Source: Spirochaetaceae bacterium | Lineage (GTDB): Bacteria; Spirochaetota; Spirochaetia; DSM-2461 | Direction: 5' to 3' | Length of the DNA stretch: 64,000 nucleotides | Assembly (NCBI GenBank): GCA_051531975.1 | Contig: JAOPTT010000005.1 | Span: 64,001 to 128,000, forward strand | Part shown: piece after piece, positions 10,703-26,694 of the stretch | Position numbering within the stretch: the stretch's first letter is position 1 | Layout of the letters: each line of letters begins with the position of its first letter | Notes under the pieces: model-generated | Told to the model about the DNA's origin: nothing | Databases searched by the model: none | What the model saw: the letters and a program-made list of their open reading frames with translations, nothing else | Position numbers and translations under genes: made by a program

Positions 10703-11410
10703 TTATAGATTTAATTTTTTGCAGGAACAGTCAAATGGTGCACATTTCACTTCAACTTTTAGAGGATATAGTTTAGAGAATATTAATAAAGCTGATAACG
10801 CTCCTAATGTTTCTACAATAGTATAAAGTATTGCTGATACTGGGGATATGCCACATATAGCATATGTAAATATTCTAGCAAATGAGACTGCAGGATTTGC
10901 ATACATATTACTTGATGAGACTAGAATCATACCTCCAACTAATAACCCAATAACTAAAGAAGTATATTTAGACTTTCCTCGAACTAAGGATATAATTGCT
11001 CCCATTAATATAAATGTACATATAAATTCCGATAAAAGTTTAGGTGGAGTTATTAGAGTTTCTGATACTGATAATATTATAGGATTCACATCAAAAAATA
11101 TTAAATTAGTAATAATTATACCTATAAATGCTCCTGATAACTGAGCTAAAATATAAAGCCCAGCTTTCTTTTTATTCATTTCACCTGCAACAAACAATGA
11201 TATTGTTACAGCAGGATTAAAATGACTTCCAGAGAGGGGAGCAAACATCTCAATAAGACAAAATAGAACAAACGCAACAGCTATGCCATTAATAAAAACA
11301 GTTATATATATTGGTGCACCAAATACAAAGTCAGCTAAAATTGTAGAACCAATTGCTGTTAATACAAGAAATAGAGTTCCTAAAAATTCTGATATTATAT
11401 TTTTGCTCAT
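10703..11410 (-). CDS. MIP/aquaporin family channel, AqpS-like, with Cys-rich C-terminal tail
   Basis: SEFLGT, SGSHFNPAVT and YANPAVSFAR (two NPA motifs); six TM helices; tail KCAPFDCSCKK. Likely start is MSKNII at 11410, not the track's 11464. Confidence 0.88.
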   Translation of the reverse strand: MSKNIISEFLGTLFLVLTAIGSTILADFVFGAPIYITVFINGIAVAFVLFCLIEMFAPLSGSHFNPAVTISLFVAGEMNKKKAGLYILAQLSGAFIGIIITNLIFFDVNPIILSVSETLITPPKLLSEFICTFILMGAIISLVRGKSKYTSLVIGLLVGGMILVSSSNMYANPAVSFARIFTYAICGISPVSAILYTIVETLGALSALLIFSKLYPLKVEVKCAPFDCSCKKLNL

Positions 11411-11420
11411 TTTCATCATC

Positions 11421-12341
11421 CTATACTGTATGATCTTTCTTAAAATTATCCCAACTACTCTCAAGTTCTTCCATATATGTTGCGATTAAAATAATAGTTA
11501 TTCCAGTATCTTGTTTCTTTTCTTCTGTAATCTCTTCAAGTTCTATTACTCCGTTATTATTACTTATATAATAATGGTCTGTACCAAATGAATAAAAACC
11601 TTTAATTCGAAGAGTTGTGGGAATAATTGAATTTAAATATTTAATAAATTCATCTTTAGGCAGATCTAATTGTGGTAAATTCAGACTAGAAGGTCTGTTT
11701 GATTTTGTATTACATGATGTGGCTGCACCATCTGGCATAAATTCTTTAGAATCCATTGATTTATAGTCAAATTCACAGTAGTTAGTAAATTCTAATCTTG
11801 CGGTCGAGTTCGTTCGTGCCATAACAGTTGTTATTTCATTTCTAATCTCTTCTGTTACTAAGTCACACTTATTTAATAGAATTGTATTAGATGACTCAAT
11901 TTGTCTATCTACAAAGGTCATATGTTTTCGTAATTTAAGTACATTAGTACAATCAGAAACACATAAAACATGTTTAATATTAAAAGCATCCCATAATTTA
12001 TATTCACCTAAAAGTCTTGCCATACTACTAGGATCTGACATTCCTGATGTCTCTATAAAAAGAATATCTGGAGCTTCTTTAATAAAAAATTGAAGCCCCA
12101 TAACAAAATCTGCAGTTAAACATGAACAAAAAATAGATCCATTCCCAATTTCATAAATTTTATTTTTGGGATCGGTACTGTTATTTCTAACAATACTTCC
12201 ATCTATTGGAACTTTACCAAAATCGTTTACTAAGAGACCTATTTTTTGGTCACTATAGGAAGTAACTAATTTATTTAAAAGTGTGGTTTTACCAGCTCCT
12301 AAGAAGCCTGTTATAATAACAATATCAATTTTTTTGTCCAT
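11421..12341 (-). CDS. CobW/COG0523-family G3E GTPase (metallochaperone)
   Basis: GFLGAGKTT, NDFG, GSIFCSC metal motif, ETSG, NKCD, and C-terminal LRIKG. Confidence 0.9.
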   Translation of the reverse strand: MDKKIDIVIITGFLGAGKTTLLNKLVTSYSDQKIGLLVNDFGKVPIDGSIVRNNSTDPKNKIYEIGNGSIFCSCLTADFVMGLQFFIKEAPDILFIETSGMSDPSSMARLLGEYKLWDAFNIKHVLCVSDCTNVLKLRKHMTFVDRQIESSNTILLNKCDLVTEEIRNEITTVMARTNSTARLEFTNYCEFDYKSMDSKEFMPDGAATSCNTKSNRPSSLNLPQLDLPKDEFIKYLNSIIPTTLRIKGFYSFGTDHYYISNNNGVIELEEITEEKKQDTGITIILIATYMEELESSWDNFKKDHTV

Positions 12342-12356
12342 GTTTTTTCTCCAGGG

Positions 12357-13703
12357 TTATAATTTCATGTTAATTGCTTTTGATAATTCATCTCTATTTG
12401 GAATTAAAGAGATAAACTCTACATCCCCGTTAATACAAATTGTAGGTAAGTTAGCAACACCTAGTTTACCTAGACGAATAATATTTTCTTTCTCAGTAAT
12501 TTTTCGTTCTATAATTTCAACTTTATCACCAAAAATAGCTGTCATATCATCTGCTGCTGCTTTCATGTAACCACAAGCTGCACAAGTTGCAGAGTCAATT
12601 GTTAAAACCTCGATCATAATTTTATCTAAGTTTTCATAATCTGGCATTTCGATATCAAAGTTTAAGTCATCTCTTACATAAGATTCTAAGAAAGTTCTAG
12701 TATTTTCAACATCTTGAACAGCCTGACCAATTCCAATAACATTTTCAATTGGAGTATCGTATGGCATGTCACAACCAGGTGCTAATATAAAGTTTGAATC
12801 ACCCATCTGATCAATTTTTTCGATTGCTGCTTTTTGACAATCTTTTTGGTTTCCAAGTAACATACAAACAGTTAACTGGATATTTCCACTTAATACTTTA
12901 CCATATTTGTCAGTAACTTTTTTAGCTGCTACTAAGTCGATATTTTCGTCGATACTAAGACAATCAGCTCCAGTTTCACACATTACTGCTAAGTTTTTAG
13001 TTGCATCACCACAAACAAAGAATGATGATAATGTTTCTTTTTCTCTTAAATGATCAAAGATCTTTTTATATGGAGCAGATATGAACTCTGCAAATGAGTC
13101 AGGTGAAATCTGAGATACTAAAGGATCAACTGCACCAATAACATCCATTCCTGCTTCAATAAAATAGTCTGACATTGCTATAAAAACATCGGCACAGTAG
13201 TCTAAAAGTGCTATTACATAATCAGGATCATCGTACATATCCATAAAAATGTTAGTTGATCTTAAGTGAGAAGCTAATGTAAAAGGTCCACAAGCTAAAC
13301 CATAAAGAGCTGTTGTATCACCAACAGATGCCTTCATTCTTTTCATAACATCTAAAATCATTGGGATTCTTCCCTCTGTTTTAGTTGGAATTTTAGTTGG
13401 AATTACTTTTGAATCTGCTAATGGGTGAGATTTTACTGTTGGTGGAGCATCGTTTGCCCAAAGTAGTTCACAATCTAATATTTCAGCTTCTACTTGTAAA
13501 TCAAATATAACTGGCATTCCATCAGGACTATACTGTTTATGAGACTCCATTAAACATTCATATAGTTTATCTGCATCTTTTAATAACTCTGTTGCAGTGT
13601 AATCTTTGAATTTACCTACCTGTATTCCTGTATATGGAACCCATGGAGTTCTTTCCAGCTTCTCGTTTCTAAATGCACTATAAATTAGTTCTTTTCCGTT
13701 CAT
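12357..13703 (-). CDS. UroD/MtaA-family corrinoid methyltransferase fused to a C-terminal thioredoxin-like CxxC domain
   Basis: DLQVEAEILDC, GPFTLASHLR, GNIQ and ILAPGCDMPYDTP motifs of the UroD-like methyltransferase barrel; C-terminal TIDSATCAACGYM...LPTICINGDV. Confidence 0.85.
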   Translation of the reverse strand: MNGKELIYSAFRNEKLERTPWVPYTGIQVGKFKDYTATELLKDADKLYECLMESHKQYSPDGMPVIFDLQVEAEILDCELLWANDAPPTVKSHPLADSKVIPTKIPTKTEGRIPMILDVMKRMKASVGDTTALYGLACGPFTLASHLRSTNIFMDMYDDPDYVIALLDYCADVFIAMSDYFIEAGMDVIGAVDPLVSQISPDSFAEFISAPYKKIFDHLREKETLSSFFVCGDATKNLAVMCETGADCLSIDENIDLVAAKKVTDKYGKVLSGNIQLTVCMLLGNQKDCQKAAIEKIDQMGDSNFILAPGCDMPYDTPIENVIGIGQAVQDVENTRTFLESYVRDDLNFDIEMPDYENLDKIMIEVLTIDSATCAACGYMKAAADDMTAIFGDKVEIIERKITEKENIIRLGKLGVANLPTICINGDVEFISLIPNRDELSKAINMKL

Positions 13704-13769
13704 TTTTTTCCCCTTGGTTGCATAGGCATGGTAATCATTAGTGTCGACCAGCCTATTCGTTGATGATTA

Positions 13770-13828
13770 AATGTACCCCTAATTTAGTGGGAAATATTGA
13801 ACTAATTTACGACTTTTTGTTATTTTTT
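13770..13828 (-). promoter_or_regulatory. Putative activator box plus -10 (TACATT) for the methyltransferase operon
   Basis: AAAAAATAACAAAAA...TTCAA box starts at 13828 and the -10 at 13775; same layout as three other promoters in the locus. Confidence 0.5.
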
Positions 13829-15116
13829 AATGAATTTCCTGATTTGTACTAAGTATTTTACCTCTTCTGTCTCTAAATTTACCAGGAGAGATCCCTGATA
13901 ATTTTTTAAAAACCTTACTAAAATAACTCTGATCTTCGTATCCTACTAAACCTGCAATATCTATTAACTGTATATCACTACTCTCAAGTAGGCTTTTACT
14001 TTTATCTATTCGTAATGTATTTAAATAATTTTTAAACGATATATTCATCTCTTCTTTAAATATTTTACTAAAATACGCAGGACTTAGGTAAACATGGCTT
14101 GCTACATCTTCTAAAGTTACCTTTTCTGTATAGTGTTCAAAAAGGTATTGTATAGACTTATAAATTGCATCGGCATGTTTTACTTTATCTAAGTCAAATA
14201 CAAAATCTATAAATCTAACCATTATTTTAGTTAACCAGTTGCATAAAGTCTCAATATTTTTAAATTGATTTATCTCTTTTAAATAGTTAAAGTTAAGACC
14301 AAATATCTGTTCTACGTTTGCTCCACCATCCATTGCAGCCCTCGATAGAAGTACTACAAGTTCAAGGATTCTAGACTTCATAATATCAAAATTTTGCCCT
14401 GTATTAAAAAATAGTTCACCTAATATCTCATTTAATAGCTTCTGTGCACCTTTTTTATCACCCTTTGATATTAATCTTAATAACTCTTTCTCTTTTTCTA
14501 TAGAGTATTTAGTTTCTGTAATACCTTGATCTTTAAGATTATGAATGTATTCAGATATTTGTGATTGTTGTGAACTTTCAAACTGTTCAGTAGCATATTT
14601 ATTTATATCTAAGTTAGATAACATAGAGGATGTTGCTAATAGTTGTTCTGATAAGGCTGTAGCTCTTTTAGGACTAAGTAGTGGTATTTTTCCAATAATA
14701 CCTCTCATCTTTGTAATCTGTTCACTATTTAAAGATACATCTTTAAGAATTTCGTCGGCAAAATATTCGTCATGGTTAATTAAAAGAACAGGACCACCAA
14801 CTAAAGCACCTCTAACAATTCCCTTTATAAGGATAGGAGCAGTAAAGTGTGTAAGTGATAAAGGACAAAAATATGTATATTTTCCACCAAAACGAAGGGC
14901 ATTATCACTTCCATATAGGTGGGCTTGTCTGCAATTTATCTCTTTACCTGTATAATGGTTTAATACAGTACAAAAAGTACATGAACTAGGGGCTACTCCC
15001 TGTGCACCTATTGTTTCTCCATTCTCGTTTGTTAGAAAACATTTAATACCTGTGGCAATCTCAAAGTCTTTTGCAGCTTTTAAAGCCTTAGTTATATCAA
15101 TACCATCTTGCCCCAT
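13827..15116 (-). CDS. PocR-sensor-domain AraC-family transcriptional regulator
   Basis: N-terminal CTFC...C...YFCPLSLTHFTAPI...LVGGPV (PocR domain); C-terminal TLEDVASHVYLSPAYFSKIFK...VGYEDQSYFSKVFKK (AraC HTHs). Confidence 0.92.
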   Translation of the reverse strand: MGQDGIDITKALKAAKDFEIATGIKCFLTNENGETIGAQGVAPSSCTFCTVLNHYTGKEINCRQAHLYGSDNALRFGGKYTYFCPLSLTHFTAPILIKGIVRGALVGGPVLLINHDEYFADEILKDVSLNSEQITKMRGIIGKIPLLSPKRATALSEQLLATSSMLSNLDINKYATEQFESSQQSQISEYIHNLKDQGITETKYSIEKEKELLRLISKGDKKGAQKLLNEILGELFFNTGQNFDIMKSRILELVVLLSRAAMDGGANVEQIFGLNFNYLKEINQFKNIETLCNWLTKIMVRFIDFVFDLDKVKHADAIYKSIQYLFEHYTEKVTLEDVASHVYLSPAYFSKIFKEEMNISFKNYLNTLRIDKSKSLLESSDIQLIDIAGLVGYEDQSYFSKVFKKLSGISPGKFRDRRGKILSTNQEIH

Positions 15117-15201
15117 AATTGTAACCTATCTCCCTGTTCTTAATTACTCTATATTAGAGCATAGAATCTATACTAGATATAAATTTATAGAGATTTTTTG
15201 T

Positions 15202-15260
15202 AAAAAAGTACAAAAATTAGTAATATTTTCAAATACCGGAACATTATGAGCTTATATACT
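15202..15260 (+). promoter_or_regulatory. Putative activator box plus -10 (TATACT) for the corrinoid protein gene
   Basis: AAAAAAGTACAAAAA...TTCAA at 15202; TATACT at 15255-15260. Confidence 0.5.
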
Positions 15261-15279
15261 TTAAACATATAACAAACAG

Positions 15280-15452
15280 ATATACTACAAAGGAAATGAG
15301 GTTAGATTCCTCTACGAGCCCGTCACTGTAATGGGGGACAACACTGAGATTACCACTGGTTTACCGGGAAGGCTCAGTAAAGATTGATCCCAAGTCAGGA
15401 AACTTTGGTATATGAAATTAGCAAGATGATTTCGTGGTTCTAGATCATTGCA
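15280..15452 (+). ncRNA. Cobalamin riboswitch (long, AdoCbl-type, with peripheral extension)
   Basis: AGGAA, GAGG-TTAGATT-CCTC, GCCCGTCACTGTAA, CCACTG...GGGAAGG and B12-box AGTCAGGAAAC. P1 is ATATAC/GTATAT. The downstream hairpin loop TCGTGG can pair with CTACGA (kissing loop). Confidence 0.88.
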
Positions 15453-15471
15453 TATTAAAATAGGAGATTAT

Positions 15472-16104
15472 ATGGCTGATTTTGAAAAAATATCATTAGC
15501 ACTACAAAAAGGTAAAGCAAAAGAAGTAACTGAGATGGTAGCAGCAGCGATTGCTGAGGGTATAAGTGCCGAAGTAATTTTAAACAAAGGACTTATGTCA
15601 GGAATGAGTATTATTGGAGAGAAATTCAAAAATAATGAAGTTTATGTACCTGAAGTATTAATTGCAGCAAGGGCTATGAACCAGGGTGCAGCATTATTAA
15701 AACCTCTTTTAATTGAAGATGGAGTTGAAGCTGTTGGTAAAGTTCTTTTAGGTACTGTAAAAGGTGACTTACATGATATTGGTAAAAACCTTGTTAGAAT
15801 GATGATGGAAGGAAAAGGTCTAGAAGTTATCGATCTTGGTACTGACGTTTCTGCACAGCAGTTTTTAGATGCTTCTAAAGAGCACGGTGTTAATGTAATT
15901 GCATGTTCAGCACTTTTAACAACAACAATGAAAGAGATGGAAGCTGTTGTTAAGTTATTTGAAGCAGAAGGAATTAGAGCCAATACTAAAATAATGGTTG
16001 GTGGAGCCCCAGTTACACAAAACTATTGTGAATCTATTGGTGCAGATATCTATACTGCAGATGCAGCATCTGCAGCAACAGCCGCAGTAGAAATATTTCA
16101 ATAA
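15472..16104 (+). CDS. Corrinoid (B12-binding) methyl-carrier protein, MtaC/MtbC/MttC-like
   Basis: Cap domain YVPEVLIAARAM; GDLHDIGKN (DxHxxG), SALLTTT and GGAPVT motifs; AGGAG RBS before ATG 15472. Confidence 0.93.
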   Translation: MADFEKISLALQKGKAKEVTEMVAAAIAEGISAEVILNKGLMSGMSIIGEKFKNNEVYVPEVLIAARAMNQGAALLKPLLIEDGVEAVGKVLLGTVKGDLHDIGKNLVRMMMEGKGLEVIDLGTDVSAQQFLDASKEHGVNVIACSALLTTTMKEMEAVVKLFEAEGIRANTKIMVGGAPVTQNYCESIGADIYTADAASAATAAVEIFQ

Positions 16105-16115
16105 ATATATTTAAA

Positions 16116-16139
16116 TAAGCTCCAGGAAACTGGAGCTTA
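16116..16139. terminator. Hairpin between convergent genes (possible bidirectional terminator)
   Basis: Perfect 10-bp stem TAAGCTCCAG-GAAA-CTGGAGCTTA. Confidence 0.7.
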
Positions 16140-16799
16140 CATTATCGATCCATCGTGGATTATTCTTCTATTTTGACAATCTGTATTAGAACATTCTAGA
16201 CAACTAACAAAATCTTTATCTGATTCAAAAATAATACCTGAGACTGTTTTATTTGGTGACATTAATAAACTTTCTGATAGGGTAACTCCAATATTTTCTG
16301 TTATATTTGGAAACAGATTAAATAACTTCTTTTGGTCAGTAAAATCCCAACCATCACCACAGACATCAGACCCAGGATTCATCGAGTATAGTTTATCTAT
16401 TTTGTATTTGGATTTTATATAATCTCTAAAATAGTCAAAAGCACTATCCATTGCCATCTGTTTTATAGCATCTAACCAATATTCAGCTAACATATCATTT
16501 TTGTAATCTTCTAGGTTTTCTAATCCGGTACCACATGTAACAATATATGGGAAAACAATACTGTTATCCTGAAGTTTTTTTGTTAGAACTTCATCTTTAA
16601 AAATTTGAGACCCAATTGTTATAATATTTTCTTCTGGAGTAATTTTTGATTCTATAAATATAGCTTTTGCAGACACAAGAGGTATCACATTTTTTAACAG
16701 TTCCTCTATTTCATCTTCCATACCTTCATATAGTTCAATTTTTACTCTTCTATTAAATTCCTTAATATTAAATTCAAATGGTATTTCTAGTATCTTCAT
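16137..16799 (-). CDS. Methionine synthase activation-domain-like protein with C-terminal Cys cluster
   Basis: FPYIVTCG, SMNPG...W...Q, IGVTLSESLLMSPNKTVSG and CLECSNTDCQNR motifs. Confidence 0.75.
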   Translation of the reverse strand: MKILEIPFEFNIKEFNRRVKIELYEGMEDEIEELLKNVIPLVSAKAIFIESKITPEENIITIGSQIFKDEVLTKKLQDNSIVFPYIVTCGTGLENLEDYKNDMLAEYWLDAIKQMAMDSAFDYFRDYIKSKYKIDKLYSMNPGSDVCGDGWDFTDQKKLFNLFPNITENIGVTLSESLLMSPNKTVSGIIFESDKDFVSCLECSNTDCQNRRIIHDGSIM

Positions 16800-18571
16800 T
16801 AAAACATCATTCCTTCTATATATTTATCTTGGAAATAAGGACTACTTGATAGTTCAATATATGTAGTTTTACCGACAATTTTATTACAAACTTCAATATT
16901 CTTAGAATGTAGAGAACAATGTATTGCACCAAGACCTGAGCTATTCCCTACCGATGTGGATATATCTACTAAATCTTTTGGTATTAAACCCATATTTGAT
17001 GCACTATTTATATTTATATAATTTCCAAATCCCCCGGCTATATAAAGATTTTTTATATCAGATCTTTCTATCCCAGCTCTGTTAATAAGTGTCTCAATTC
17101 CAGCTGATATAGACGCTTTTGCTAGTTGAACTTCTCTTATATCCTTCTGGGTAAAAAGTATCTGCTCTCCTGTTCCAGAATCTTGGGCGGAAACTATTAT
17201 ATATGCTCCTTCACCATCTGCTATGTAATTTTTGTCATCTACTAGATTATCTTCATCAAATCTACCTGTCTCATCTATTATTTTATGGGTGATAAATTCA
17301 GAAACAATATCTACTATTGCAGATCCACATATACCGATTGGTTTACCGTTATTTATTGTTGTGAATCTCTGGTTTTCTGATATCGAAAATCTATTGATAG
17401 CCCCTGTTATAGCTCCTATTCCATTAGATATATGAGCCCCCTCAAAAGCAGGTCCTGCAGCAGTTGAACAACTAAAATAAGATTGACTGTTTCCAAGAAT
17501 AATTTCACCGTTTGTTCCAAGGTCAACCAATAAGGATATATTCAGTGACTCATCCATAGAAGTAGCTAAAACTCCAGAAACAATATCAGCACCAACATAT
17601 GCAGATATTGAAGGTAATATAAATACTTCTAGGTCATTTTGCATATTCATAATCTCATTTATATTAAAGCTAAAACTATCTAAGAAAACTGGTGTAAATG
17701 GAGCAGTTGCAATTGTTGCAGGATCGGTACCTGTAAGTAGGTGTAACATTGTAGTATTTCCAGCAATTACTAAGCTAGTAATATCAGATTCATTAATATT
17801 GTTTTTAAACATTAACTCTCTAATCATCCCATCTAATTGTGTAGTTATTTTCTCCCCAAGAGTTTTAAGACCATTACTATTTTTAATACAGTAATCTATC
17901 CGAGATATAACATCTGCACCAAATGACTTTTGACTATTTAATTGACTAACAGATTCAACAATTGCACCTGTTGTACTGTTTAACAGATATAAAACCACCG
18001 TTGTAGTTCCTATATCTATAGCGACCGAATAATGGGCATACTTATTTGTAATTGCAGTTACAGAGATTATTTTATTATCTGTATAAGTTACCGCCAGTGA
18101 ATAATTGTTTTTGGACAAAACACCAGAAATATTCTGTCGAACTTTTAAAGGTATAAAAGGCTGGTTCAGATTTAATTCTTGGATAAGCCTAGTAATATCA
18201 TCTCTCTGGTCTTCTAAACTAGGTCTGGATAGTTTTATATCTTTTCTTTTTACTAATGTATCTATCTTTCCTGTATAACCTAAGTGACTTTCTAGGATCA
18301 AACTACTGTTTACATTATATTCAACTTCTAATTCAATATCTGTTATTGGCATAACATTACATGCAAGTCTAATTCCAGAATCTAGCTCATAATCTGTTAA
18401 TAATGACTTTTCTAAAGATTCAGGTTCTATGGCATTTCCATTTAATATTTTAACCTTACATTTTCCACAAGTCCCATTTCCACTACAAGATGCATCAAGT
18501 GGTATATTAAAGTCCTCTCTTAAAGAGTCTAATAAGTTTTTATCTCTATTTGTAATTATAATTTTATCCAT
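16799..18571 (-). CDS. ATP-dependent reductive activator of corrinoid proteins (RACE/RACo, ASKHA, DUF4445) with N-terminal [2Fe-2S] domain
   Basis: CSGNGTCGKC...RLAC, DIGTTT, FGADVISRI, DLGTNGEI, TAAGPAFEG, GICGS, QLAKA and AGGFG motifs. The start may be 18571 or the track's 18598. Confidence 0.92.
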   Translation of the reverse strand: MDKIIITNRDKNLLDSLREDFNIPLDASCSGNGTCGKCKVKILNGNAIEPESLEKSLLTDYELDSGIRLACNVMPITDIELEVEYNVNSSLILESHLGYTGKIDTLVKRKDIKLSRPSLEDQRDDITRLIQELNLNQPFIPLKVRQNISGVLSKNNYSLAVTYTDNKIISVTAITNKYAHYSVAIDIGTTTVVLYLLNSTTGAIVESVSQLNSQKSFGADVISRIDYCIKNSNGLKTLGEKITTQLDGMIRELMFKNNINESDITSLVIAGNTTMLHLLTGTDPATIATAPFTPVFLDSFSFNINEIMNMQNDLEVFILPSISAYVGADIVSGVLATSMDESLNISLLVDLGTNGEIILGNSQSYFSCSTAAGPAFEGAHISNGIGAITGAINRFSISENQRFTTINNGKPIGICGSAIVDIVSEFITHKIIDETGRFDEDNLVDDKNYIADGEGAYIIVSAQDSGTGEQILFTQKDIREVQLAKASISAGIETLINRAGIERSDIKNLYIAGGFGNYININSASNMGLIPKDLVDISTSVGNSSGLGAIHCSLHSKNIEVCNKIVGKTTYIELSSSPYFQDKYIEGMMF

Positions 18572-18577
18572 GTAGAC

Positions 18578-18698
18578 ATTATTCCACGGAATATACAAAA
18601 ATGTTTGTAATTTATATTATATTTTTGTATTTTTTTGTTATAGATTACAAAAATTAAAAATATATTTATATACTGGTCATACTAACATTGTCTAAAAT
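18578..18698. promoter_or_regulatory. Back-to-back promoters for the RACE operon and the cob operon, each with the shared TACAAAAAT box
   Basis: Minus strand: AAAAAAATACAAAAAT from 18636, AATAAT at 18583-18578. Plus strand: TATAGATTACAAAAAT from 18639, TAAAAT at 18693-18698. Confidence 0.5.
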
Positions 18699-18729
18699 GA
18701 ATTAACCTTTTAATTCCAGGAGATAAAAA

Positions 18730-19287
18730 TTGGGAAAGATAACATTAGTACTTGGTGGAATCAAATGTGGTAAAACCAGTTATGCTGAAAAATTGGCATC
18801 GGATAGAGAGTCTCGTGGTGGTGAAATACTATATTTAGCAACTGCAGAAGCATTAGATGATGAAATGAAACACAGAATAGACCGACATAGAGCTGATAGA
18901 CCTAAAAACTGGGATACTGCAGAAGAACCTCTAGATGTAAAATCTATATTCGAAAAAAAAGGGAATGTATATGACTTAATACTATTTGACTGTTTAACTT
19001 TATGGATAACAAATAAAATTGGACAAGCAGGTGAGAACTATATAAGAGAAGAACTAATGGACAATATAATTTCTTCCTGTAAAGAATTTATAAGTCAAAT
19101 TAAAGATATTGAAGCAGAAGTCGTTATAGTTTCTAATCAAGTTGAAGTTGGACTTATTTCTCCATATCCGTTAGGACGAGTTTTTCAAGATATTGCAGGT
19201 TTGTTACATCAGGAAATTGCTAGGTCTGCCAATAAAGTTGTTGTGATGCAAGCAGGTATACCAACGATTTTAAAAGAGGATGTATAA
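18730..19287 (+). CDS. cobU: Adenosylcobinamide kinase / cobinamide-phosphate guanylyltransferase
   Basis: GGIKCGKT, YLATA..DDEM..RI..H, DCLTLW and VSNQV motifs. Confidence 0.93.
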   Translation: MGKITLVLGGIKCGKTSYAEKLASDRESRGGEILYLATAEALDDEMKHRIDRHRADRPKNWDTAEEPLDVKSIFEKKGNVYDLILFDCLTLWITNKIGQAGENYIREELMDNIISSCKEFISQIKDIEAEVVIVSNQVEVGLISPYPLGRVFQDIAGLLHQEIARSANKVVVMQAGIPTILKEDV

Positions 19288-20365
19288 AATGGATCTATTA
19301 AGTAGTACAATAGCTAATATAAAACCCATATCTAGTAGTCTATTATCTGAAGCTCAAGATAAACAGGATAACTTAACAAAACCAAGAGGTGCTTTTGGGC
19401 GTTTAGAAGATCTTTCTATTAAAATAGCTGGAATTCAGAATACTCTAACTCCAAAAATTAAGGATAAAGCTGTTCTTCTTTTTGGTGGAGATCATCTGAC
19501 TGTCCACGAAGAGGGCATCGCATCTGCTCCTATAGAAGTTACAGCACAGATGATGCAGAATTTTGTAGAATCTAAGGGTGCAGGGGTAAATGTTATAGCT
19601 GACTCTATTGGTGCAAGAGTAGTTGTCACCGATGTTGGTGTTGCAACAGAGTATCCAGTAGATCTGCCAATATATAAAAAATCTATCCAAAAAGGTGCTA
19701 ATAATATTTGTAAAGGGCCAGCAATGACTTTAGAGCAGGCAACTAGGTCTGTTGAAGTTGGAATAGAGGTACTATTAGATCAAAAAAAGAGAGGTTTAGA
19801 TATTATTGCAGTAGGTGAGATGGGTATAGGAAATACAACACCCTCTAGTGCAATCTTTTCTTTTATTACAGGACAGGATGTTGATCTTGTAACAGGACCT
19901 GGGGCTGGAATAATAGACCAGAAAATAATGAAAAAAAGAGAAGTTATTAAAAAGGCTCTACTGATAAATAAAATAGACCCGAATAATGGATTAGATATAT
20001 TGGCAAAAATTGGTGGGTTTGAAATCGGAGCTATGGCCGGTGCCATGATAGGAGCCGCTTCTGTACAGATACCAGTTATGGTAGATGGCTTTATTGCTAC
20101 AGCTGCCGCATTAATTGCAATTAAAATAACCCCAAGCATAGAACCATATCTGATTTCAGCTCATCACTCTGCAGAAACAGGATATAATAAAGTAATAGAT
20201 TTTCTACAGCAAAAACCTCTATTAGATCTTGGTATGAGGTTAGGGGAAGGTACAGGTGCCCTTTTAGGGATCTCTTTAGCTGAAGTTGCTGTAAATATAT
20301 TCAATAATATGACTACATTTACAGACGCAGAAGTAATAAAGGCAGAGGAGAGGAATACTCTATAA
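19280..20365 (+). CDS. cobT: Nicotinate-nucleotide:dimethylbenzimidazole phosphoribosyltransferase
   Basis: LTKP.G..GRLE, GEMGIGNTT, VDGFI and LGMRLGEGTGA motifs. Confidence 0.95.
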   Translation: MYKMDLLSSTIANIKPISSSLLSEAQDKQDNLTKPRGAFGRLEDLSIKIAGIQNTLTPKIKDKAVLLFGGDHLTVHEEGIASAPIEVTAQMMQNFVESKGAGVNVIADSIGARVVVTDVGVATEYPVDLPIYKKSIQKGANNICKGPAMTLEQATRSVEVGIEVLLDQKKRGLDIIAVGEMGIGNTTPSSAIFSFITGQDVDLVTGPGAGIIDQKIMKKREVIKKALLINKIDPNNGLDILAKIGGFEIGAMAGAMIGAASVQIPVMVDGFIATAAALIAIKITPSIEPYLISAHHSAETGYNKVIDFLQQKPLLDLGMRLGEGTGALLGISLAEVAVNIFNNMTTFTDAEVIKAEERNTL

Positions 20366-21120
20366 TGAAAAGATTATTATATGCATTTAGATTTTTAACC
20401 ATATTACCAATACCTTGGAAACAGGATGAAGATCTAAATAAAGTAGCAGGTAGTATTATATATTTTCCATTTGTAGGACTATCAATCGGGATTATTTTAT
20501 CTTCTATTATTTATATACTAAATCCACTAATTAGTCCTTTAGCTACAGCTTCAATTTCAGTTCTACTGTGGATATTATTTACTGGAGGATTACATTTAGA
20601 TGGTCTATCAGATCTTTTTGATGGCTTTGGTGGAGGAAACAGAGAAGATAGACTTAGAATAATGAAGGATAGTAACATTGGTGCATTTGGTGCCCTCTCA
20701 TTAATACTTCTAATAATTTTAAAAATAATATTTGTAAGAGAATTAATTATTACCGATAGTTCTAAATTATTATTCCCATTAATTTTAGCACCAACGTGGG
20801 GAAGACTAATGCAGCTTATAGTTATACGTTTCTTTAAATCTGCTAGACCTGATGGTATGGGAAACTTCTTTAAAAAGAGTATTAAAGAGTGGTATTGGAT
20901 AACACCATTGGTATTAACTTTAGGTTTAACAATTTATCTGTTATCGCCTTTATCTATACTTTTTATATTACCACTAATATTAATATTAATTCTCTTTTCT
21001 ATCTCAGTATCAAAAAAACTAGAGGGTTTAACAGGTGATTGTTACGGTGCAATTTGTGAAATTACAGAGCTACTATTTATAGTTCTATATTTTATAATTT
21101 ACAGGAGTCATCTTGGATAA
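20365..21120 (+). CDS. cobS: Adenosylcobinamide-GDP ribazoletransferase (cobalamin synthase)
   Basis: FLTILP, TGGLHLDGLSD..DG, IMKDS.IGAFG and GLTGDCYGA motifs. Confidence 0.95.
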   Translation: MKRLLYAFRFLTILPIPWKQDEDLNKVAGSIIYFPFVGLSIGIILSSIIYILNPLISPLATASISVLLWILFTGGLHLDGLSDLFDGFGGGNREDRLRIMKDSNIGAFGALSLILLIILKIIFVRELIITDSSKLLFPLILAPTWGRLMQLIVIRFFKSARPDGMGNFFKKSIKEWYWITPLVLTLGLTIYLLSPLSILFILPLILILILFSISVSKKLEGLTGDCYGAICEITELLFIVLYFIIYRSHLG

Positions 21121-21187
21121 AACTCGTCTAATAAAATCTCAACTAATGAATTTGTCTTTATTCTTATCTCCAAGAAAATGCCTATGA
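21113..21187 (+). other. 24-codon mini-ORF bridging cobS and cbiA (possible deletion scar)
   Basis: AGGAG at 21103-21107, TTG at 21113, MDKTRLIKSQLMNLSLFLSPRKCL*. Its TGA overlaps the cbiA ATG (ATGA). Confidence 0.4.
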
Positions 21188-22542
21188 AAAGGATTTTAAT
21201 AGCAGGTACAAAAAGTGGGGTAGGTAAAACCACTGTTTCCATGGGAATTATGGCTGCATTATCCAAAAAAATGAATGTTCAACCATACAAAGTTGGTCCC
21301 GATTATATAGATTCCGCATATCATTCTTATATAACTGGTAATATTTGTAGTAATTTAGATTCATATCTTCTAGATAAGCAGATGATCGAGTATTTATTTG
21401 TCAAAAACAGTAGAAATAAAGATATAGCTATTATAGAAGGAGTAATGGGACTTTTTGATGGAGCTGAGATAAAAAGTGATATTGGAACCAGTGCATCTAT
21501 TGCAAAGATCCTAAATACTCCAATTATTTTAGTAGTGGATGGTAGTGGTGTTGCATCATCTATTGCGGCCACAATAAAAGGTTTTGAAGTTTTTGATCCA
21601 GATACTAAAATTACTGGAGTTATTATTAATAACGTAGGTAGTAGACAACATTATGAACTCTTAAAAAGTGCAATAGAGTATCATACCACTGTTATACCTT
21701 GTGGTTACCTAATAAGGGATAGTGTTATTAGTCTACCAGAAAGACATTTAGGTCTGGTACCTGCCTGTGAGCAGATAGAACTTGAAACTACATTTAAAAC
21801 TTTAGCCAATCAGGTTGAGTCTACTATCGACTTAGATAAAATAATTAAACTCTCGGAATCTACAGTCCTTACAGATTTCCCACTGTTTGAATTAAAAAAA
21901 GAGAACCCAATATCACTTAGAGTAGCAATTGCAAAGGATAGTGCGTTCAACTTTTATTACCAAGATAGTTTAGATATATTATCTGAAATGTATAATATTA
22001 TGTGGATACCTTATAGTCCTATTAGTGACAGAGAACTACCTAAAAATATTCATGGTTTATATCTTGGTGGTGGATTCCCTGAAGTTTTTGCCAAAGAGAT
22101 TTCAGAAAACAGAGAGATGAAATCTTCACTATTAAAAAATCTTAATAATGGCCTACCCTATATTGCAGAATGTGGAGGTCTAATGTATTTAGGTGAAACA
22201 TTAATAGATTTGCATGGATTAGAGTACTCAATGGTAGGGTGGTTTAAAGGTTATAGTAAAATGACACAAAAACTACAACGTTTTGGTTATGCGTCATTAA
22301 CTCAAAATAATAACACAATTAAAATACATGAATTCCATAGGTCAGAATCTTTTTTTAATGAAAAAACAGTATATAAATTAGAAAAAAGAAGAGAGAATAA
22401 AGTAATACAAAGTTGGAATTGTGGCTATACTAAAGGCGCTGGCATTGCTGGTTATGCCCACTTTCACTTTGGAAGTAATCTGACATTTGCCAATGACTTT
22501 GTTAATAAGTGTTTAGAGTATAAAAAAGTGAATAAGAGCTAA
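21184..22542 (+). CDS. cbiA: Cobyrinate a,c-diamide synthase
   Basis: SGVGKTT, KVGPDYID, IEGVMGLFDG, LPERHLGL, AFNFYY and AECGGLMYL motifs. Confidence 0.95.
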   Translation: MKRILIAGTKSGVGKTTVSMGIMAALSKKMNVQPYKVGPDYIDSAYHSYITGNICSNLDSYLLDKQMIEYLFVKNSRNKDIAIIEGVMGLFDGAEIKSDIGTSASIAKILNTPIILVVDGSGVASSIAATIKGFEVFDPDTKITGVIINNVGSRQHYELLKSAIEYHTTVIPCGYLIRDSVISLPERHLGLVPACEQIELETTFKTLANQVESTIDLDKIIKLSESTVLTDFPLFELKKENPISLRVAIAKDSAFNFYYQDSLDILSEMYNIMWIPYSPISDRELPKNIHGLYLGGGFPEVFAKEISENREMKSSLLKNLNNGLPYIAECGGLMYLGETLIDLHGLEYSMVGWFKGYSKMTQKLQRFGYASLTQNNNTIKIHEFHRSESFFNEKTVYKLEKRRENKVIQSWNCGYTKGAGIAGYAHFHFGSNLTFANDFVNKCLEYKKVNKS

Positions 22543-22573
22543 AGAACAGTTAATTGATATATAGGAGAATTAA

Positions 22574-23107
22574 ATGGAAATAGATAGAGGTATAATTTTA
22601 GTAAATACAGGAAATGGTAAAGGTAAAAGTACAGCAGCATTTGGAACTGCCTTTAGAGCTTTAGGCCAAGGTTTTACTGTTGCCATTATTCAATTCATTA
22701 AAGGTAAATGGAAAACAGGAGAGATGGAAACATTTAAACTCTTTGATAATTTAACCCATATAATTTCAGGTGAAGGATTTACTTGGAACTCAGAAGATTT
22801 ACAAAAGGATAAAGATGCAGCTATAAAAGGTTGGAACATAGCAAAGGATATAATATTAGGTAAAGCAGATAAAGATTATCAGCTCATAGTATTAGATGAG
22901 CTTAATATTGCCCTTGATTTGAAGTTTGTGGATATAGATGACGTTTTAGAAGTACTAAAAAATAAACCAGACACTCTTAATATAATTATAACAGGTAGAA
23001 ATGCTCCTAAAGAGATAATTGAAATTGCAGACACTGTTACAAATATGACTCCAATAAAACATGCTTATGAACGTGGAATTAAAGCACAAAAAGGAATTGA
23101 GTTTTAA
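22574..23107 (+). CDS. cobO: Cob(I)yrinic acid a,c-diamide adenosyltransferase
   Basis: TGNGKGKSTAAFG, QFIKG, LDE, TGR, and KH...G..AQKGIEF motifs. Confidence 0.95.
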   Translation: MEIDRGIILVNTGNGKGKSTAAFGTAFRALGQGFTVAIIQFIKGKWKTGEMETFKLFDNLTHIISGEGFTWNSEDLQKDKDAAIKGWNIAKDIILGKADKDYQLIVLDELNIALDLKFVDIDDVLEVLKNKPDTLNIIITGRNAPKEIIEIADTVTNMTPIKHAYERGIKAQKGIEF

Positions 23108-24594
23108 TGGGAAAATCCTTAATGATTATGGGGACAGCATCCTCAGTTGGTAAATCTGTTGTAACAACAGGACTGTGTAGACTCTTTTACAGAGAAGGGT
23201 ACAATGTTAATCCATTTAAATCTCAAAACATGGCTCTTAACTCTTTTATTACAGTTGATGGACACGAAATGGGTCGGGCACAGGTTGTACAGGCAGAAGC
23301 AGCTTGTAAAATACCAAATGTTAAAATGAATCCTATATTAATAAAACCATCTTCGGATGTAGATTCTCAAGTGATTGTAAATGGTAAAATTTTAGAGAAC
23401 ATGAATGCAGCCCAGTATCATAAACATAAACCAGAACTAAAAGAGCTGGTAAGAAAGTGTTACAAAGAATTAGAAGATGAATCCGACTTAGTCATTTTAG
23501 AGGGTGCTGGAAGTCCAGCAGAGATCAACCTAAGAGAAGGGGACTTGGTAAATATGGGAATGGCGGAAATATCAGATTCCCCAGTGCTCCTTGTTGGAGA
23601 TATTGATAAGGGTGGTGTTTTTGCATCTTTGTATGGAACGATAATGTTATTACAACCGGAAGAAAGAGCTAGAATTAAGGGTGTTATTATTAATAAGTTC
23701 CGGGGGGATGTTAAACTTTTAGAACCTGGACTAAAAATGTTAGAGGATTTAATACACATTCCTGTATTAGGGGTTATCCCTTGGAATAACATCGATATTG
23801 AAGATGAAGATAGTTTAACTGAACGTTTTAATATTAGCCAACAAAATGGATGTATCGACATTGCTATTTTACAGTACCCACATATGTCCAATTATACTGA
23901 CTTTACAATTTTAGAAGCTGTTTCAGATATTAATGTTAGGTATATATCAGGTGGCGAATCTATAGGTAATACTGATATCATAATCATCCCTGGTTCAAAA
24001 AGTGTAATATCAGACTTTCAGTTTTTAAAAAACTGTGGGTGGGATCAGGAAATATATAGACATAACAGAGAGCATAAACCGGTTATTGGTATTTGTGGTG
24101 GATATCAGATGTTAGGTAACAGAATAGAGGACCCAGACAACGTTGAAGGTAGTGTAAAAGGTATTAATGGTTTAGGTCTACTAAATATGACTACAACCTT
24201 TTTAAATAATAAATGTACAACTCAATCCAAAGGTGTAATTAATAAACTTGAAGGTGAATGGAATTGTATCTCTGGTTTTGAGGTAGAAGGATACGAGATA
24301 CATATGGGGGTAACGGAAAGTAAAGAGATTCCATTAATAACTAATGTGGATAAAAGCTCTGACGGTTCAATAAAAGATAATGTTATTGGTTCATACTTTC
24401 ATGGAATTTTTGATAATAGAGAATTTTTATCCTCTTTAGTTAATAAGATTAAAACAGATAAAGGAATAGAACATAATAACGATCAGGTTATGGATTTTAA
24501 AGTATATAAAGACAATGAGTTTAATAAACTTGCAGATCTATATAACAAATGTCTAGATATGAAAGCTATAAAAGGGATTATATCTAAGTGGTAA
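23107..24594 (+). CDS. cobQ: Cobyric acid synthase
   Basis: GTASSVGKS, PFKSQNMALNS, EGAGSPAEINL, GICGGYQMLG and GYEIH motifs. Confidence 0.95.
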   Translation: MGKSLMIMGTASSVGKSVVTTGLCRLFYREGYNVNPFKSQNMALNSFITVDGHEMGRAQVVQAEAACKIPNVKMNPILIKPSSDVDSQVIVNGKILENMNAAQYHKHKPELKELVRKCYKELEDESDLVILEGAGSPAEINLREGDLVNMGMAEISDSPVLLVGDIDKGGVFASLYGTIMLLQPEERARIKGVIINKFRGDVKLLEPGLKMLEDLIHIPVLGVIPWNNIDIEDEDSLTERFNISQQNGCIDIAILQYPHMSNYTDFTILEAVSDINVRYISGGESIGNTDIIIIPGSKSVISDFQFLKNCGWDQEIYRHNREHKPVIGICGGYQMLGNRIEDPDNVEGSVKGINGLGLLNMTTTFLNNKCTTQSKGVINKLEGEWNCISGFEVEGYEIHMGVTESKEIPLITNVDKSSDGSIKDNVIGSYFHGIFDNREFLSSLVNKIKTDKGIEHNNDQVMDFKVYKDNEFNKLADLYNKCLDMKAIKGIISKW

Positions 24595-25529
24595 TTCCAT
24601 TAACAATTGGTTATATTCTAGATCTTTTAATAGGTGACCCACACTGGTTACCCCATCCAATTAGGTTTATAGGTACTTTAATTAACAAATTAGAATCTTT
24701 GCTCAGAAAAAAAGAGAGATATCTGAAATTTAAAGGCCTAATTCTTTTAATTTTAACCTCTGGAATAAGCTTTTTAACTGTCTTTATAATTTTATATCTT
24801 TTAGAGAAAGTAAACATTTATATAGCAGACATAGTATGTGCTTTTATCATATTCCAGATACTGGCTACCAAAAGTCTATTTACCGAAACTAATAAAGTTT
24901 ATAAAGCTCTACTAGCCAATGACTTGGATCTTGCCAAAAAACAGTTGTCGTATTTAGTATCAAGAGATTGTGAAAGTATGAATAAGACTGATGTAATTCG
25001 TTCAACCATAGAGACCATTTCAGAAAATATTGTAGATGGTATTACATCACCTCTGTTTTATATCTTAATAGGTGGTGCACCATTAGGGATGTTTTACAAA
25101 GCAGTGAATACATTAGATTCAATGGTTGGCTATAAAAATGACAAATATATGGACTTTGGTTATTTCTCAGCTAAGTTTGACGATTTTGTTAACTATGTTC
25201 CTGCTAGAATCAGTTCAATCATAATAATATTCTCATCATTTTTATTAGGATTGGATTTTAAATTAGCTTTTAAAACATTAATAAAAGATAGAAGAAACCA
25301 TAGTAGTCCCAACAGTGGTTACGCTGAAGCTCCAGTAGCTGGAGCATTAGGAATACAATTAGGTGGAAAAGTCTCATATTTTGGTGTAATACATAATAAA
25401 CCAACTATGGGTCTAGATGTTAATGAACCAGAAAACATAGATATTAGAAAAACACACAAGATTATGTTTTTAACATCTCTTATATTTTTTAGTCTCTGTA
25501 TTGGAGTTTCACTTTTATGGAAAAATTAA
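24588..25529 (+). CDS. cbiB: Adenosylcobinamide-phosphate synthase
   Basis: GDP..LPHP, VSRD, ENIVDG, YKAVNTLDSMVGYK and HSSPNSGYAEA motifs. Confidence 0.95.
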   Translation: MVIPLTIGYILDLLIGDPHWLPHPIRFIGTLINKLESLLRKKERYLKFKGLILLILTSGISFLTVFIILYLLEKVNIYIADIVCAFIIFQILATKSLFTETNKVYKALLANDLDLAKKQLSYLVSRDCESMNKTDVIRSTIETISENIVDGITSPLFYILIGGAPLGMFYKAVNTLDSMVGYKNDKYMDFGYFSAKFDDFVNYVPARISSIIIIFSSFLLGLDFKLAFKTLIKDRRNHSSPNSGYAEAPVAGALGIQLGGKVSYFGVIHNKPTMGLDVNEPENIDIRKTHKIMFLTSLIFFSLCIGVSLLWKN

Positions 25530-26563
25530 AAGATTTTACCCATGGTGGTAATGTACATAAAGCATCTATAAATAATAAAATTTCAAAACATAAAATTCTG
25601 GACTTTAGTGCAAACATAAACCCATTAGGATTAAGCCCAAAAGGCTTAAGTAGCATAAAAAATGGAGTTAGAAATATTCTTAACTATCCAGATCCAGAGT
25701 ATATTGAACTAAGACAATCTTTAGCTGGTTATTACAATGTAGATATAGATCATTTAATCCCAGGTAATGGTGCTATAGAACTGATCTATAGCTATGTAAA
25801 AAACAGAGAGGTTGGTACCGCTTTAATTCCAGCTCCTGGATTTGTAGAGTACGAAAAGGCCCTTTTAAGTTATGGTTGGGAGGTTCTATATTATACAAAT
25901 AAAGATGAAATAAATACTACCAACGTAGATGTTATATTTATATGTAATCCTAATAACCCAACGGGATCTTCTTATTCTGAAAGCTACTTAACAGAATTAT
26001 TAAATAGATGTAGTAATAATAATACAGACCTGTTTTTAGATGAAGCATTTATAGAGTTTTCAAGTTATAAATCAATGTCATCCTATTTACACAAGTTTAA
26101 TAACCTATTTATTCTTAAATCTTTAACTAAGTTTTTTGCTATACCTGGCTTACGTTTAGGTGCACTATTAACATCGAATAAAACCTTCAAAGATAGTTTT
26201 AATAAAATTATAATTCCTTGGAGTATCAACTCTGTTGCACAGGATTATATAACAAGTGCAATTAAAGATAACAGATATATTAATAAATCTAAGTACTATA
26301 TAAAAAGAGAGCGTATATGGTTATTTAAACAATTAACTAACATTCCTAATCTTAAAGTATTTAGAACTCAAGGCAATTTTATGGTATTTAAAATTGATCT
26401 AGACATAGACCTTTGTTCAGTATTAATTAGTAAAGGAATATTAATAAGAAGTTGTTTTAATTATAATAGTTTAGATTCCTCCTACTATCGTATTGCAATA
26501 AAGAGACATGGTCAAAATAAAGTTCTACTTAGAAGTCTAAAAAAGGTTTTTACTAGTGGTTGA
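25517..26563 (+). CDS. cobD: Threonine-phosphate decarboxylase
   Basis: HGGN, DFSANINPLG, CNPNNPTG, DEAF and SLTKFFAIPGLRLG (PLP lysine) motifs. Confidence 0.92.
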   Translation: MEKLKDFTHGGNVHKASINNKISKHKILDFSANINPLGLSPKGLSSIKNGVRNILNYPDPEYIELRQSLAGYYNVDIDHLIPGNGAIELIYSYVKNREVGTALIPAPGFVEYEKALLSYGWEVLYYTNKDEINTTNVDVIFICNPNNPTGSSYSESYLTELLNRCSNNNTDLFLDEAFIEFSSYKSMSSYLHKFNNLFILKSLTKFFAIPGLRLGALLTSNKTFKDSFNKIIIPWSINSVAQDYITSAIKDNRYINKSKYYIKRERIWLFKQLTNIPNLKVFRTQGNFMVFKIDLDIDLCSVLISKGILIRSCFNYNSLDSSYYRIAIKRHGQNKVLLRSLKKVFTSG

Positions 26564-26694
26564 ATTATGTAGTTATATTGTTATTACACATGGTGCTATA
26601 ATTACCCTATTACTTTCTATCGTAAATAATTGGGAATATTTCCCAAGGAAATGATACTTTAGCGAATTGCTCTATTAATAGAATAAATCTTTAG
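26556..26694 (+). pseudogene. Frameshifted, internally deleted histidine-phosphatase (cobC-like) remnant
   Basis: GTG overlaps the cobD end and reads MVELCSYIVITHGAIITLLLSIVN. After a +1 frameshift it reads GNISQGNDTLANCSINRINL*. Both pieces resemble the C-terminal VxTHG..I and NxSI motifs of histidine phosphatases. Confidence 0.55.

Follow-up and report, generated by a model that had tools for sequence, protein, structure and literature searches.

A candidate methyltransferase II in a spirochaete corrinoid locus

How does a bacterium take a methyl group off its corrinoid carrier when the carrier's locus encodes no methyltransferase II (MT2) of a known family? This question is raised by a locus in the genome of a Spirochaetaceae bacterium (5.46 Mb, 98.5% complete), within the 64,000-nucleotide stretch of DNA that we analysed and refer to as the window (G000:C5:64001-128000). 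Its nearest named homologues are from Spirochaetales. The original prediction for this locus held in that it recognized a corrinoid-dependent methyl-transfer system in which a single unusual methyltransferase has no partner from a known folate- or coenzyme M-type family. Open reading frame (ORF) calls, with Pfam and NCBIfam profiles for proteins and Rfam for the riboswitch, recovered every gene it had named and the cobalamin riboswitch, and the locus contains no pterin-binding MT2, MtaB, MttB or MtmB. The unusual methyltransferase, which we call UT, is encoded at positions 12357..13703 on the minus strand and fuses an MtaA-like UroD barrel (residues 1–335; URO-D domain) to a thioredoxin-like domain with a CAAC motif at residues 374–377 (TIGR00411, E 1.3e-8). 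From its gene position and distribution, UT is probably a new MT2 that takes the methyl group off the carrier.

We surveyed 64 related loci by tblastn, 33 of which have full 10-kb flanks, and the source genomes of 50 of these loci together with G203 (n = 51; many are metagenome-assembled genomes (MAGs) of unstated completeness). The conserved core is UT and a CobW-type G3E GTPase, found in 57 of the 64 loci; the corrinoid activator RACE was found in 24 and a corrinoid protein in 22. At the genome level, a stand-alone corrinoid protein was present in 49 of the 51 carriers, with a partial one in another, and RACE was present in 48, compared with 72 of 251 genomes in a background sample of the spirochaete phylum. 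Acetyl-CoA synthase (ACS) was found in nine carriers. A stand-alone ORF resembling the pterin-binding MT2 MeTr (268–376 aa, E 1e-12 to 1e-25, with unclear matches in G279 and G264 left out) occurred in 11 of 50, nine of which also have ACS. Among the window's other genes, the MetH-activation gene and CbiA were each found in a single related locus, and CobU, CobT, CobS and BtuR in none. By these counts, the constant partners of UT are a methyl carrier and its activator, and the channel and the cobamide operon of the window are local.

A wider query set identified MttB and DUF1638 in 15 of the 64 loci each, a BioB/PylB-like radical SAM protein in 13, MtmB in four, and MtbB and MeTr in one each; UroD-type neighbours also occur. 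UT thus accompanies four unrelated types of methyltransferase I (MT1; MttB, MtmB, MtbB and UroD), which makes it unlikely that UT itself is substrate-specific. Related clusters carry amine methyltransferases or UroD-type MT1 candidates instead of a pterin-binding MT2. The homologous clusters lack the channel that the original prediction had placed at the centre of the system, an outcome which that prediction had itself named as counting against it. The puzzle that it had posed over the MT2 stands, since a pterin-binding MT2 was present in only one of the 64.

The gene order in two Desulfoluna genomes (G278 and G281, the genomes of loci L052 and L055) bears directly on the role of UT. An MttB–BCCT–corrinoid run is followed by MeTr in some of the paralogous operons (L153 and L154) and by UT in another (L137 and L138). 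MeTr was seen in none of 13 further UT loci, and UT in none of four MeTr loci (six genes). Five genomes (G267, G268, G275, G276 and G297) have MttB in the locus, a carrier, RACE and UT as their sole URO-D match, without MeTr or ACS; G297 has six MttB matches and one UT. In a sample of 151 Desulfovibrionaceae genomes centred on G265, in which G268 and G297 were already-known carriers and kin are not independent, UT was found in eight genomes and MttB in seven, and all seven MttB genomes were among the eight. Stand-alone MeTr was found in none of these eight. In Bilophila wadsworthia, UT heads an operon of UT, CobW, corrinoid protein, DUF1638, RACE and an MttB with an in-frame TAG (L036; amber, pyrrolysine-MttB), and a second UT copy lies inside an MtmB operon (L146). 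In its accessible part, Kivenson et al. 2021 calls the second methyltransferase uncharacterised and proposes a MetH-family protein for one genome.

These arrangements also bear on the possibility that UT is itself an MT1 for a small solute detected by PocR and taken up through the channel, such as methanol, methanethiol, dimethyl sulfide or a halomethane. The UroD superfamily does hold MT1s, including the metal-free CdmB with its aromatic cavity (PMC13222342, in the sections available), and the His-to-Phe change in UT described below would fit. PocR-type regulators adjoin UT in about ten loci, and L057 has recruited a second MIP channel. However, this possibility leaves the genomes with MttB and UT without an MT2 of any known fold, and UT lies within operons that already hold their own MT1 and transporter. 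We therefore regard an MT1 role as improbable.

An MtaA-like barrel with an altered zinc motif

A structure model of UT (mean pLDDT 93) found its best fold match in MtaA (PDB 4ay7) with a Z score of 41.7 and a root-mean-square deviation of 1.9 Å over 326 residues at 25% identity. Although its UroD-type TIM barrel is closest to that of MtaA, UT scored below the cut-offs of all MtaA-, MtbA- and CmuA-type NCBIfam models (TIGR01463, 162 bits against 235; NF004889, 151 against 244; NF040654, 138 against 400; NF041608, 129 against 600) and lacks the His-x-Cys...Cys motif. Nor does it reach the HemE cut-off (TIGR01464, 85.9 bits against 303). The His of the MtaA H-x-C zinc motif aligns with F229 of UT. 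Read from the alignment alone, the active site would keep the two Cys and the acidic ligand position of MtaA (C231, C311 and D252). These residues, F229, C78, H93, C138, H146 and both cysteines of the CAAC motif (C374 and C377) are invariant in the 120 best-scoring homologues. In a broader set of 65 proteins, F229, C231, C78, H93 and H146 are invariant, C138 is present in 63, and each CAAC cysteine is present in 62; the remaining three are truncated rows with a gap there. Position 138 is Thr in more distant members.

The family comprises at least 4,927 of the 7,999 clusters scored (90% identity; E of 1e-100 or better). Its members come from Spirochaetota, Bacillota, Thermodesulfobacteriota, Lentisphaerota and Thermotogota, and thioredoxin-less relatives occur in Chloroflexota. 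Databases name thousands of UT-like proteins as uroporphyrinogen decarboxylase or thioredoxin. Some members have a second thioredoxin domain; a search for longer fusions (840–2395 aa) found none, which is weak evidence. In a tree built by a quick method from the barrel part (44 proteins from the set of 65, together with 13 further copies and 20 distantly related representatives), the UT-like rows formed one clade (67 rows, SH-aLRT 100) separate from the MtaA-like rows with HxC, and grouping tracked host groups more than MT1 type. In a complete Lachnospiraceae genome, the UT gene is split between two reading frames (L059:10001-11370), by a frameshift or a sequencing error. We found no description of a UroD–thioredoxin fusion in the literature, in a search that covered subscription journals thinly.

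UT shares with MtaA, MtbA and MtsA of Methanosarcina its fold, the positions of its Cys ligands and, we infer, the role of a common MT2 for several MT1s. It differs from them in its sub-threshold scores, in the replacement of the zinc His by Phe, and in the extra invariant C78, H93, C138 and H146 and the CAAC domain; unlike Methanosarcina, its host is a bacterium without sign of methanogenesis. Our best reading is that UT would serve several MT1s in common as their second methyltransferase, much as MtbA or MeTr does, while family tests place it with neither.

A second point of comparison is the type 1 mlp cluster of Kountz and Balskus. As described in the accessible text of PMC10418091, these clusters, from anaerobes that are not methanogens, encode MtaA-like proteins (Mlps) together with a corrinoid protein and RACE but no folate methylase, all of which the UT locus shares. 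Methyl transfer to sulfide or a thiol was proposed for them, and one member was active on selenide and sulfide in vitro. Type 1 clusters have at least two co-directional Mlps with a His-Cys-Cys motif and are tied to selenium or methionine salvage, whereas the UT locus has one Phe-Cys-Cys Mlp, a fused thioredoxin, a CobW partner and amine or sugar MT1 candidates. Judged by the type 1 definition, the locus has no tetrahydrofolate methylase within 20 kb, but it does not show the required arrangement of two or more Mlps with a corrinoid protein and RACE co-directional within 2 kb, and its corrinoid gene lies on the opposite strand. In the accessible part of that paper, CobW and Bilophila are absent from the text and thioredoxin appears only in a reference title; none of the three appears in the supplements.

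The Odm/Vdm/Mtv, Mtg/Mtq and Cdm demethylases each combine an MT1, a corrinoid protein, a pterin-binding MT2 and an activator. The UT system has in common with them a corrinoid carrier, RACE and, putatively, MT1s of the UroD or MttB families, and departs from them in having no pterin-binding MT2, no ACS and many dispersed MT1 candidates per carrier. By context, we liken the window's CobW to subfamily 13 of COG0523, G3E GTPases encoded beside corrinoid methyltransferase genes (Haas et al. 2009, PMC2770081); in the available sections, subfamily 13 is described beside mtaABC/ramM or MeTr and not beside a UroD–thioredoxin fusion. We consider the CobW GTPase a probable metal chaperone of UT.

One carrier and many satellite enzymes

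The original prediction had taken the locus for a self-contained module with one methyltransferase. That view overlooked the UroD-fold MT1 O-demethylases, which are established (PMC13222342, in part), and the rest of the genome, which has 17 URO-D matches besides UT, one broken and 16 intact (18 in all). With 16 intact UroD-fold MT1 candidates encoded elsewhere, the module is not self-contained. The genome has one corrinoid carrier, one RACE and one CobW of the UT-partner type. We found no stand-alone MeTr or ACS in it, the only pterin-binding matches being a FolP-sized ORF and a 1207-aa MetH; nor did we find MtaB, or MttB, MtmB or MtbB by tblastn at 1e-8.

Fifteen of the 16 intact satellites lie near sugar ABC transporters, glycosidases (GH31 and GH88), sulfatases, sugar-acid enzymes or rhaA/B/D, and 12 carry an H-x-C-G motif. 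A PocR paralogue, 65% identical to that of the window, adjoins one satellite UroD gene with its sugar ABC operon and converges on it (L088:6976-13115; G000:C5 ~375-381 kb). A similar UroD gene lies near the hub in the closest relatives (L017 and L018). A comparison of upstream motifs between the hub and the satellites gave no convincing common motif. Among the 51 carrier genomes, 21 have at least ten URO-D matches. Family, motif and context together suggest that O-methyl sugars are demethylated via the shared carrier. The host is best read as a sugar-fermenting anaerobe, and the locus as its shared B12 methyl-carrier hub.

Sulfur or folate as possible methyl acceptors

We propose a scheme in which substrate-specific enzymes encoded elsewhere feed this central hub. 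Satellite UroD-fold enzymes would demethylate imported O-methyl sugars and load the methyl groups onto the one corrinoid protein in its Co(I) state, as family, motif and context suggest. RACE, in a role established for its family, and perhaps also the MetH-activation-domain protein, would keep the carrier reduced. UT would then remove the methyl group as MT2 and transfer it to a metal-activated sulfur nucleophile, which may be sulfide, a persulfide or a small thiol such as homocysteine. This transfer would yield methanethiol or a different S-methyl compound, to be excreted or recycled to methionine. More speculatively, CobW would load the rebuilt metal site of UT, and the CAAC domain would hold that site in a reduced state or set the product free. 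UT would serve amine and betaine methyltransferases in Bilophila, Mailhella, Desulfovibrio and Desulfoluna. The channel would be a local add-on that may pass a small product or substrate. Taken with all its parts, this scheme falls a little short of being probable.

If UT is an MT2, a sulfur nucleophile is, with moderate confidence, its most likely acceptor. The nearest structure is that of the thiol methyltransferase MtaA, and UT has retained the Cys ligands together with a CxxC domain and a partner that is probably a metal chaperone. With methylcobalamin as donor, a related Mlp transfers methyl groups to selenide and, at a lower rate, to sulfide (PMC10418091, in the accessible text). Each of these points to sulfur. 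Sulfide methylation coupled to O-demethylation is known as a sediment process (PMC7374477 and PMC8359953, in part).

Several observations weigh against the roles proposed here. The S-methyltransferase signature described in the available part of PMC10418091 is His-Cys-Cys, and the Phe at the zinc-His position in all 120 best homologues means that UT does not match it. Fhs and MetF were both present in five of five tested Desulfovibrionaceae carriers, and Fhs in six of eight UT carriers compared with 37 of 143 non-carriers (kin again not independent), a distribution that favours a folate sink. The methyl group is also a useful product for a user of trimethylamine (TMA), and an amine demethylator should keep it. 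As to the MT2 role itself, UT was found in only two of the 251 spirochaete-phylum genomes, and among the 70 that are RACE-positive and UT-negative, stand-alone MeTr was present in only 21 (plus one unclear). The 48 or 49 without MeTr imply that other sinks, or other uses of RACE, exist; many RACE-positive genomes have only a MetH of 800–860 aa, which RACE may serve. At one locus (L072), UT has both MeTr and a homocysteine methyltransferase as neighbours. In the window's own genome, three homocysteine-methyltransferase domains could also drain the carrier, and an MtaA-like satellite with an intact H-x-C...C motif in a sugar ABC operon (L081:7468-8502; G000:C17) could be a second MT2 or an S-methyltransferase. 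The reactions of UT and the satellites are predictions from sequence and context, full flanks are available for just 33 of the 64 loci, and many of the genomes are MAGs. We tested for a clean genome-level split between UT and MeTr, which was not found.

Some of these observations fit a reading in which UT is an MT2 with tetrahydrofolate as acceptor, a UroD-fold, non-orthologous replacement of MeTr that would feed MetF/FolD/Fhs oxidation or MetH. UT occupies the exact operon slot of MeTr, it has lost the zinc His, the Fhs and MetF counts agree with this reading, and a folate sink would account for the gain to an amine demethylator; Fhs and MetF are also both present in the window's genome. Kountz and Balskus raise the same option for their Mlps (PMC10418091, in the available sections). 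Yet the fold matches contain no single-barrel UroD folate methylase, no Fhs was seen in two of the eight carriers, and Desulfoluna retains both UT and MeTr operons. MeTr is not known to require a metal, whereas UT keeps invariant Cys and His residues, a CxxC domain and a CobW partner. Given an MT2 role, we hold folate to be a possible though less likely acceptor, and the replacement of MeTr as a whole to be unlikely.

The tight linkage of UT to a G3E GTPase admits a different reading, in which UT and CobW act as an accessory pair that uses thiol chemistry to load, repair or de-alkylate the carrier's cobamide, and MetH- or YitJ-type domains acting in trans are the real sink. The co-localization of COG0523 subfamily 13 with corrinoid methyltransferases (PMC2770081, in part) would agree with this, as would the nine ACS-positive genomes that have UT alongside a folate sink, the many RACE genomes without UT or MeTr, and the three homocysteine-methyltransferase domains of the window's genome. 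Such a system would be expected beside MeTr operons too, yet UT is absent from all four MeTr loci, and several UT copies adjoin a corrinoid gene without CobW (L137, L138 and L147). An accessory role thus appears rather unlikely, and we continue to favour UT as the MT2 of the hub. The window's genome also encodes, besides its intact MetH, two YitJ-like fusions of homocysteine methyltransferase and MTHFR (L134 and L135; 605 and 614 aa). It has selD (G000:C7:116757-117683), which matters only if selenide is the acceptor.

The channel is a local addition

The original prediction had built the system around the MIP channel gene (10703..11419, minus strand; PF00230; 235 aa, starting at ATG 11410 or at either of two ATGs slightly upstream) and labelled it AqpS-like, a label that we treat as putative. 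The survey does not bear out this central place. The window's MIP type had no match in the 64 related loci at 1e-8, where the sole MIP (L057) is 29% identical and of another type, and among the 51 carrier genomes 37 have no MIP match and 13 have one above the cut-off. The channel is the only MIP of its genome and the last gene of the UT–CobW unit, a lineage-specific passenger. Its nearest named kin are aquaporins of Methanomassiliicoccales at about 50% identity, which suggests an archaeal-type channel in a spirochaete. Members of this clade (~50% identity, many from Methanomassiliicoccales) share a C-terminal Cys-x-Pro-x-Asp/Glu-Cys tail (10703-10740 in the window) and follow the second NPA/NP motif with Val or Met. 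When metagenomes were scanned with the channel, only two distant loci (28–30% identity) of uninformative context came up.

We also considered whether the locus, as a module complete in itself, adds methyl groups to, or removes them from, arsenicals or another metalloid taken up through the channel. The channel is co-transcribed with UT and CobW here, its clade has the conserved C-terminal Cys pair, and the thioredoxin domain of UT matches the MTH895/ArsE model weakly (E 3.7e-4, below the cut-off). The MtaA of methanogens is capable of metalloid methylation as a side activity. Against this, neither the channel type nor acr3 was found in any of the 64 loci, no arsenic family occurred among the 95 and 42 neighbours scanned, no ars genes lie beside the channel, and the genome's own acr3 is on another contig. 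The single LMWPc neighbour (L047) carries a CHGNICRS motif, which we take to be phosphatase-type. The metalloid substrate of the original prediction is therefore most improbable.

Organization of the locus and its neighbours

The original prediction had treated the genes as a single contiguous locus. Its gene content is correct, but the genes form at least four transcription units on both strands. The minus-strand order is pocR, UT, cobW and the MIP channel, with the channel start no more than 11 bases from the cobW stop. cobW (11421..12341; PF02492) encodes the COG0523-type GTPase with invariant G-S-x-x-C-x-C columns, and pocR (13827..15116) an AraC regulator with a PocR sensor domain. The cobalamin riboswitch (15251..15421, plus strand; RF00174, 66.4 bits against a gathering score of 31.5), also kept in L017, precedes the gene for the stand-alone B12-binding corrinoid protein (15472..16104, plus strand), the sole copy found genome-wide, which probably starts at ATG 15472; the two diverge from pocR. 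The genes for the stand-alone MetH-activation-domain protein (16137..16799, minus strand; PF02965, E 1.7e-6), which may provide a second reactivation route for the carrier, and the single-copy, ATP-dependent corrinoid activator RACE/RACo (16799..18598, minus strand; Fer2 and RACo domains) converge on it. Divergent from RACE is a late cobamide synthesis and salvage operon, cobU-cobT-cobS-cbiA-btuR-cobQ-cbiB-cobD (18730..26563, plus strand), assigned by family profiles to cofactor supply.

A scan of the locus for promoters and terminators performed no better than chance. An A-rich motif (approximately AAAAA-TACAAAAA) lies 5' of UT (13812-13826), the corrinoid gene (15199-15216) and RACE (18621-18636) and is kept in L017; it is possibly a regulator site, a weak signal given the AT-rich DNA. 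Elsewhere on the contig, several overlapping short ORFs after an ABC permease pair (L086:11515-14630; G000:C5 ~34.5-37.6 kb) suggest frameshifted genes for a binding protein and a hydrolase.

Other genes recur beside UT in related loci. In 13 of the 64 loci (L045:8941-9951 and 12 others), from Lachnospiraceae, Desulfovibrionaceae and one Desulfobacteraceae MAG, UT has beside it a BioB/PylB/HydE-like radical SAM gene that scores under every curated cut-off. The window's genome lacks this gene, whose product may synthesize the acceptor or alter it. In 11 loci (L057:14617-15720; L129; L020-L035), UT and CobW are followed by a second CobW-related GTPase of greater length (weak NF041053 match); in G283 this longer GTPase twice comes directly after a MIP channel, in one case behind a PadR regulator that bears Cys. 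Two spirochaete MtmB-like operons (L143:6188-14060 and L144) run from RACE, MtmB, corrinoid protein and DUF1638 through a molybdopterin-dehydrogenase FAD subunit to a second UT. Upstream of UT we found a ThiC-family radical SAM gene (L047:6283-7587) and nitroreductase-family genes (L047, L053, L061, L062 and L073), which could, by analogy, serve cobamide lower-ligand synthesis.

Implications

The candidate for the second methyltransferase of the Bilophila operon can now be named as one gene, UT. A broader proposal, doubtful at present, is that UT is a widespread methylcobamide:sulfide methyltransferase through which non-acetogenic anaerobes release the methyl groups of TMA, betaine and O-methyl sugars as methanethiol. 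If true, UT would supply the second, so far uncharacterised methyltransferase with which TMA is demethylated in Bilophila, whose use of TMA is discussed as a route to lowering trimethylamine N-oxide (PMC7593587 and PMC10653893, in part), and would be a candidate for the enzyme that methylates sulfide anaerobically in sediments and guts. Both main outcomes would be new enzymology: a sulfide or thiol sink would tie the removal of methyl groups to volatile sulfur, and a folate methyltransferase would have a fold not known to serve that role. For fermenters, the UT hub is a possible exit route for the methyl groups handled by their many sugar-locus UroD paralogues.

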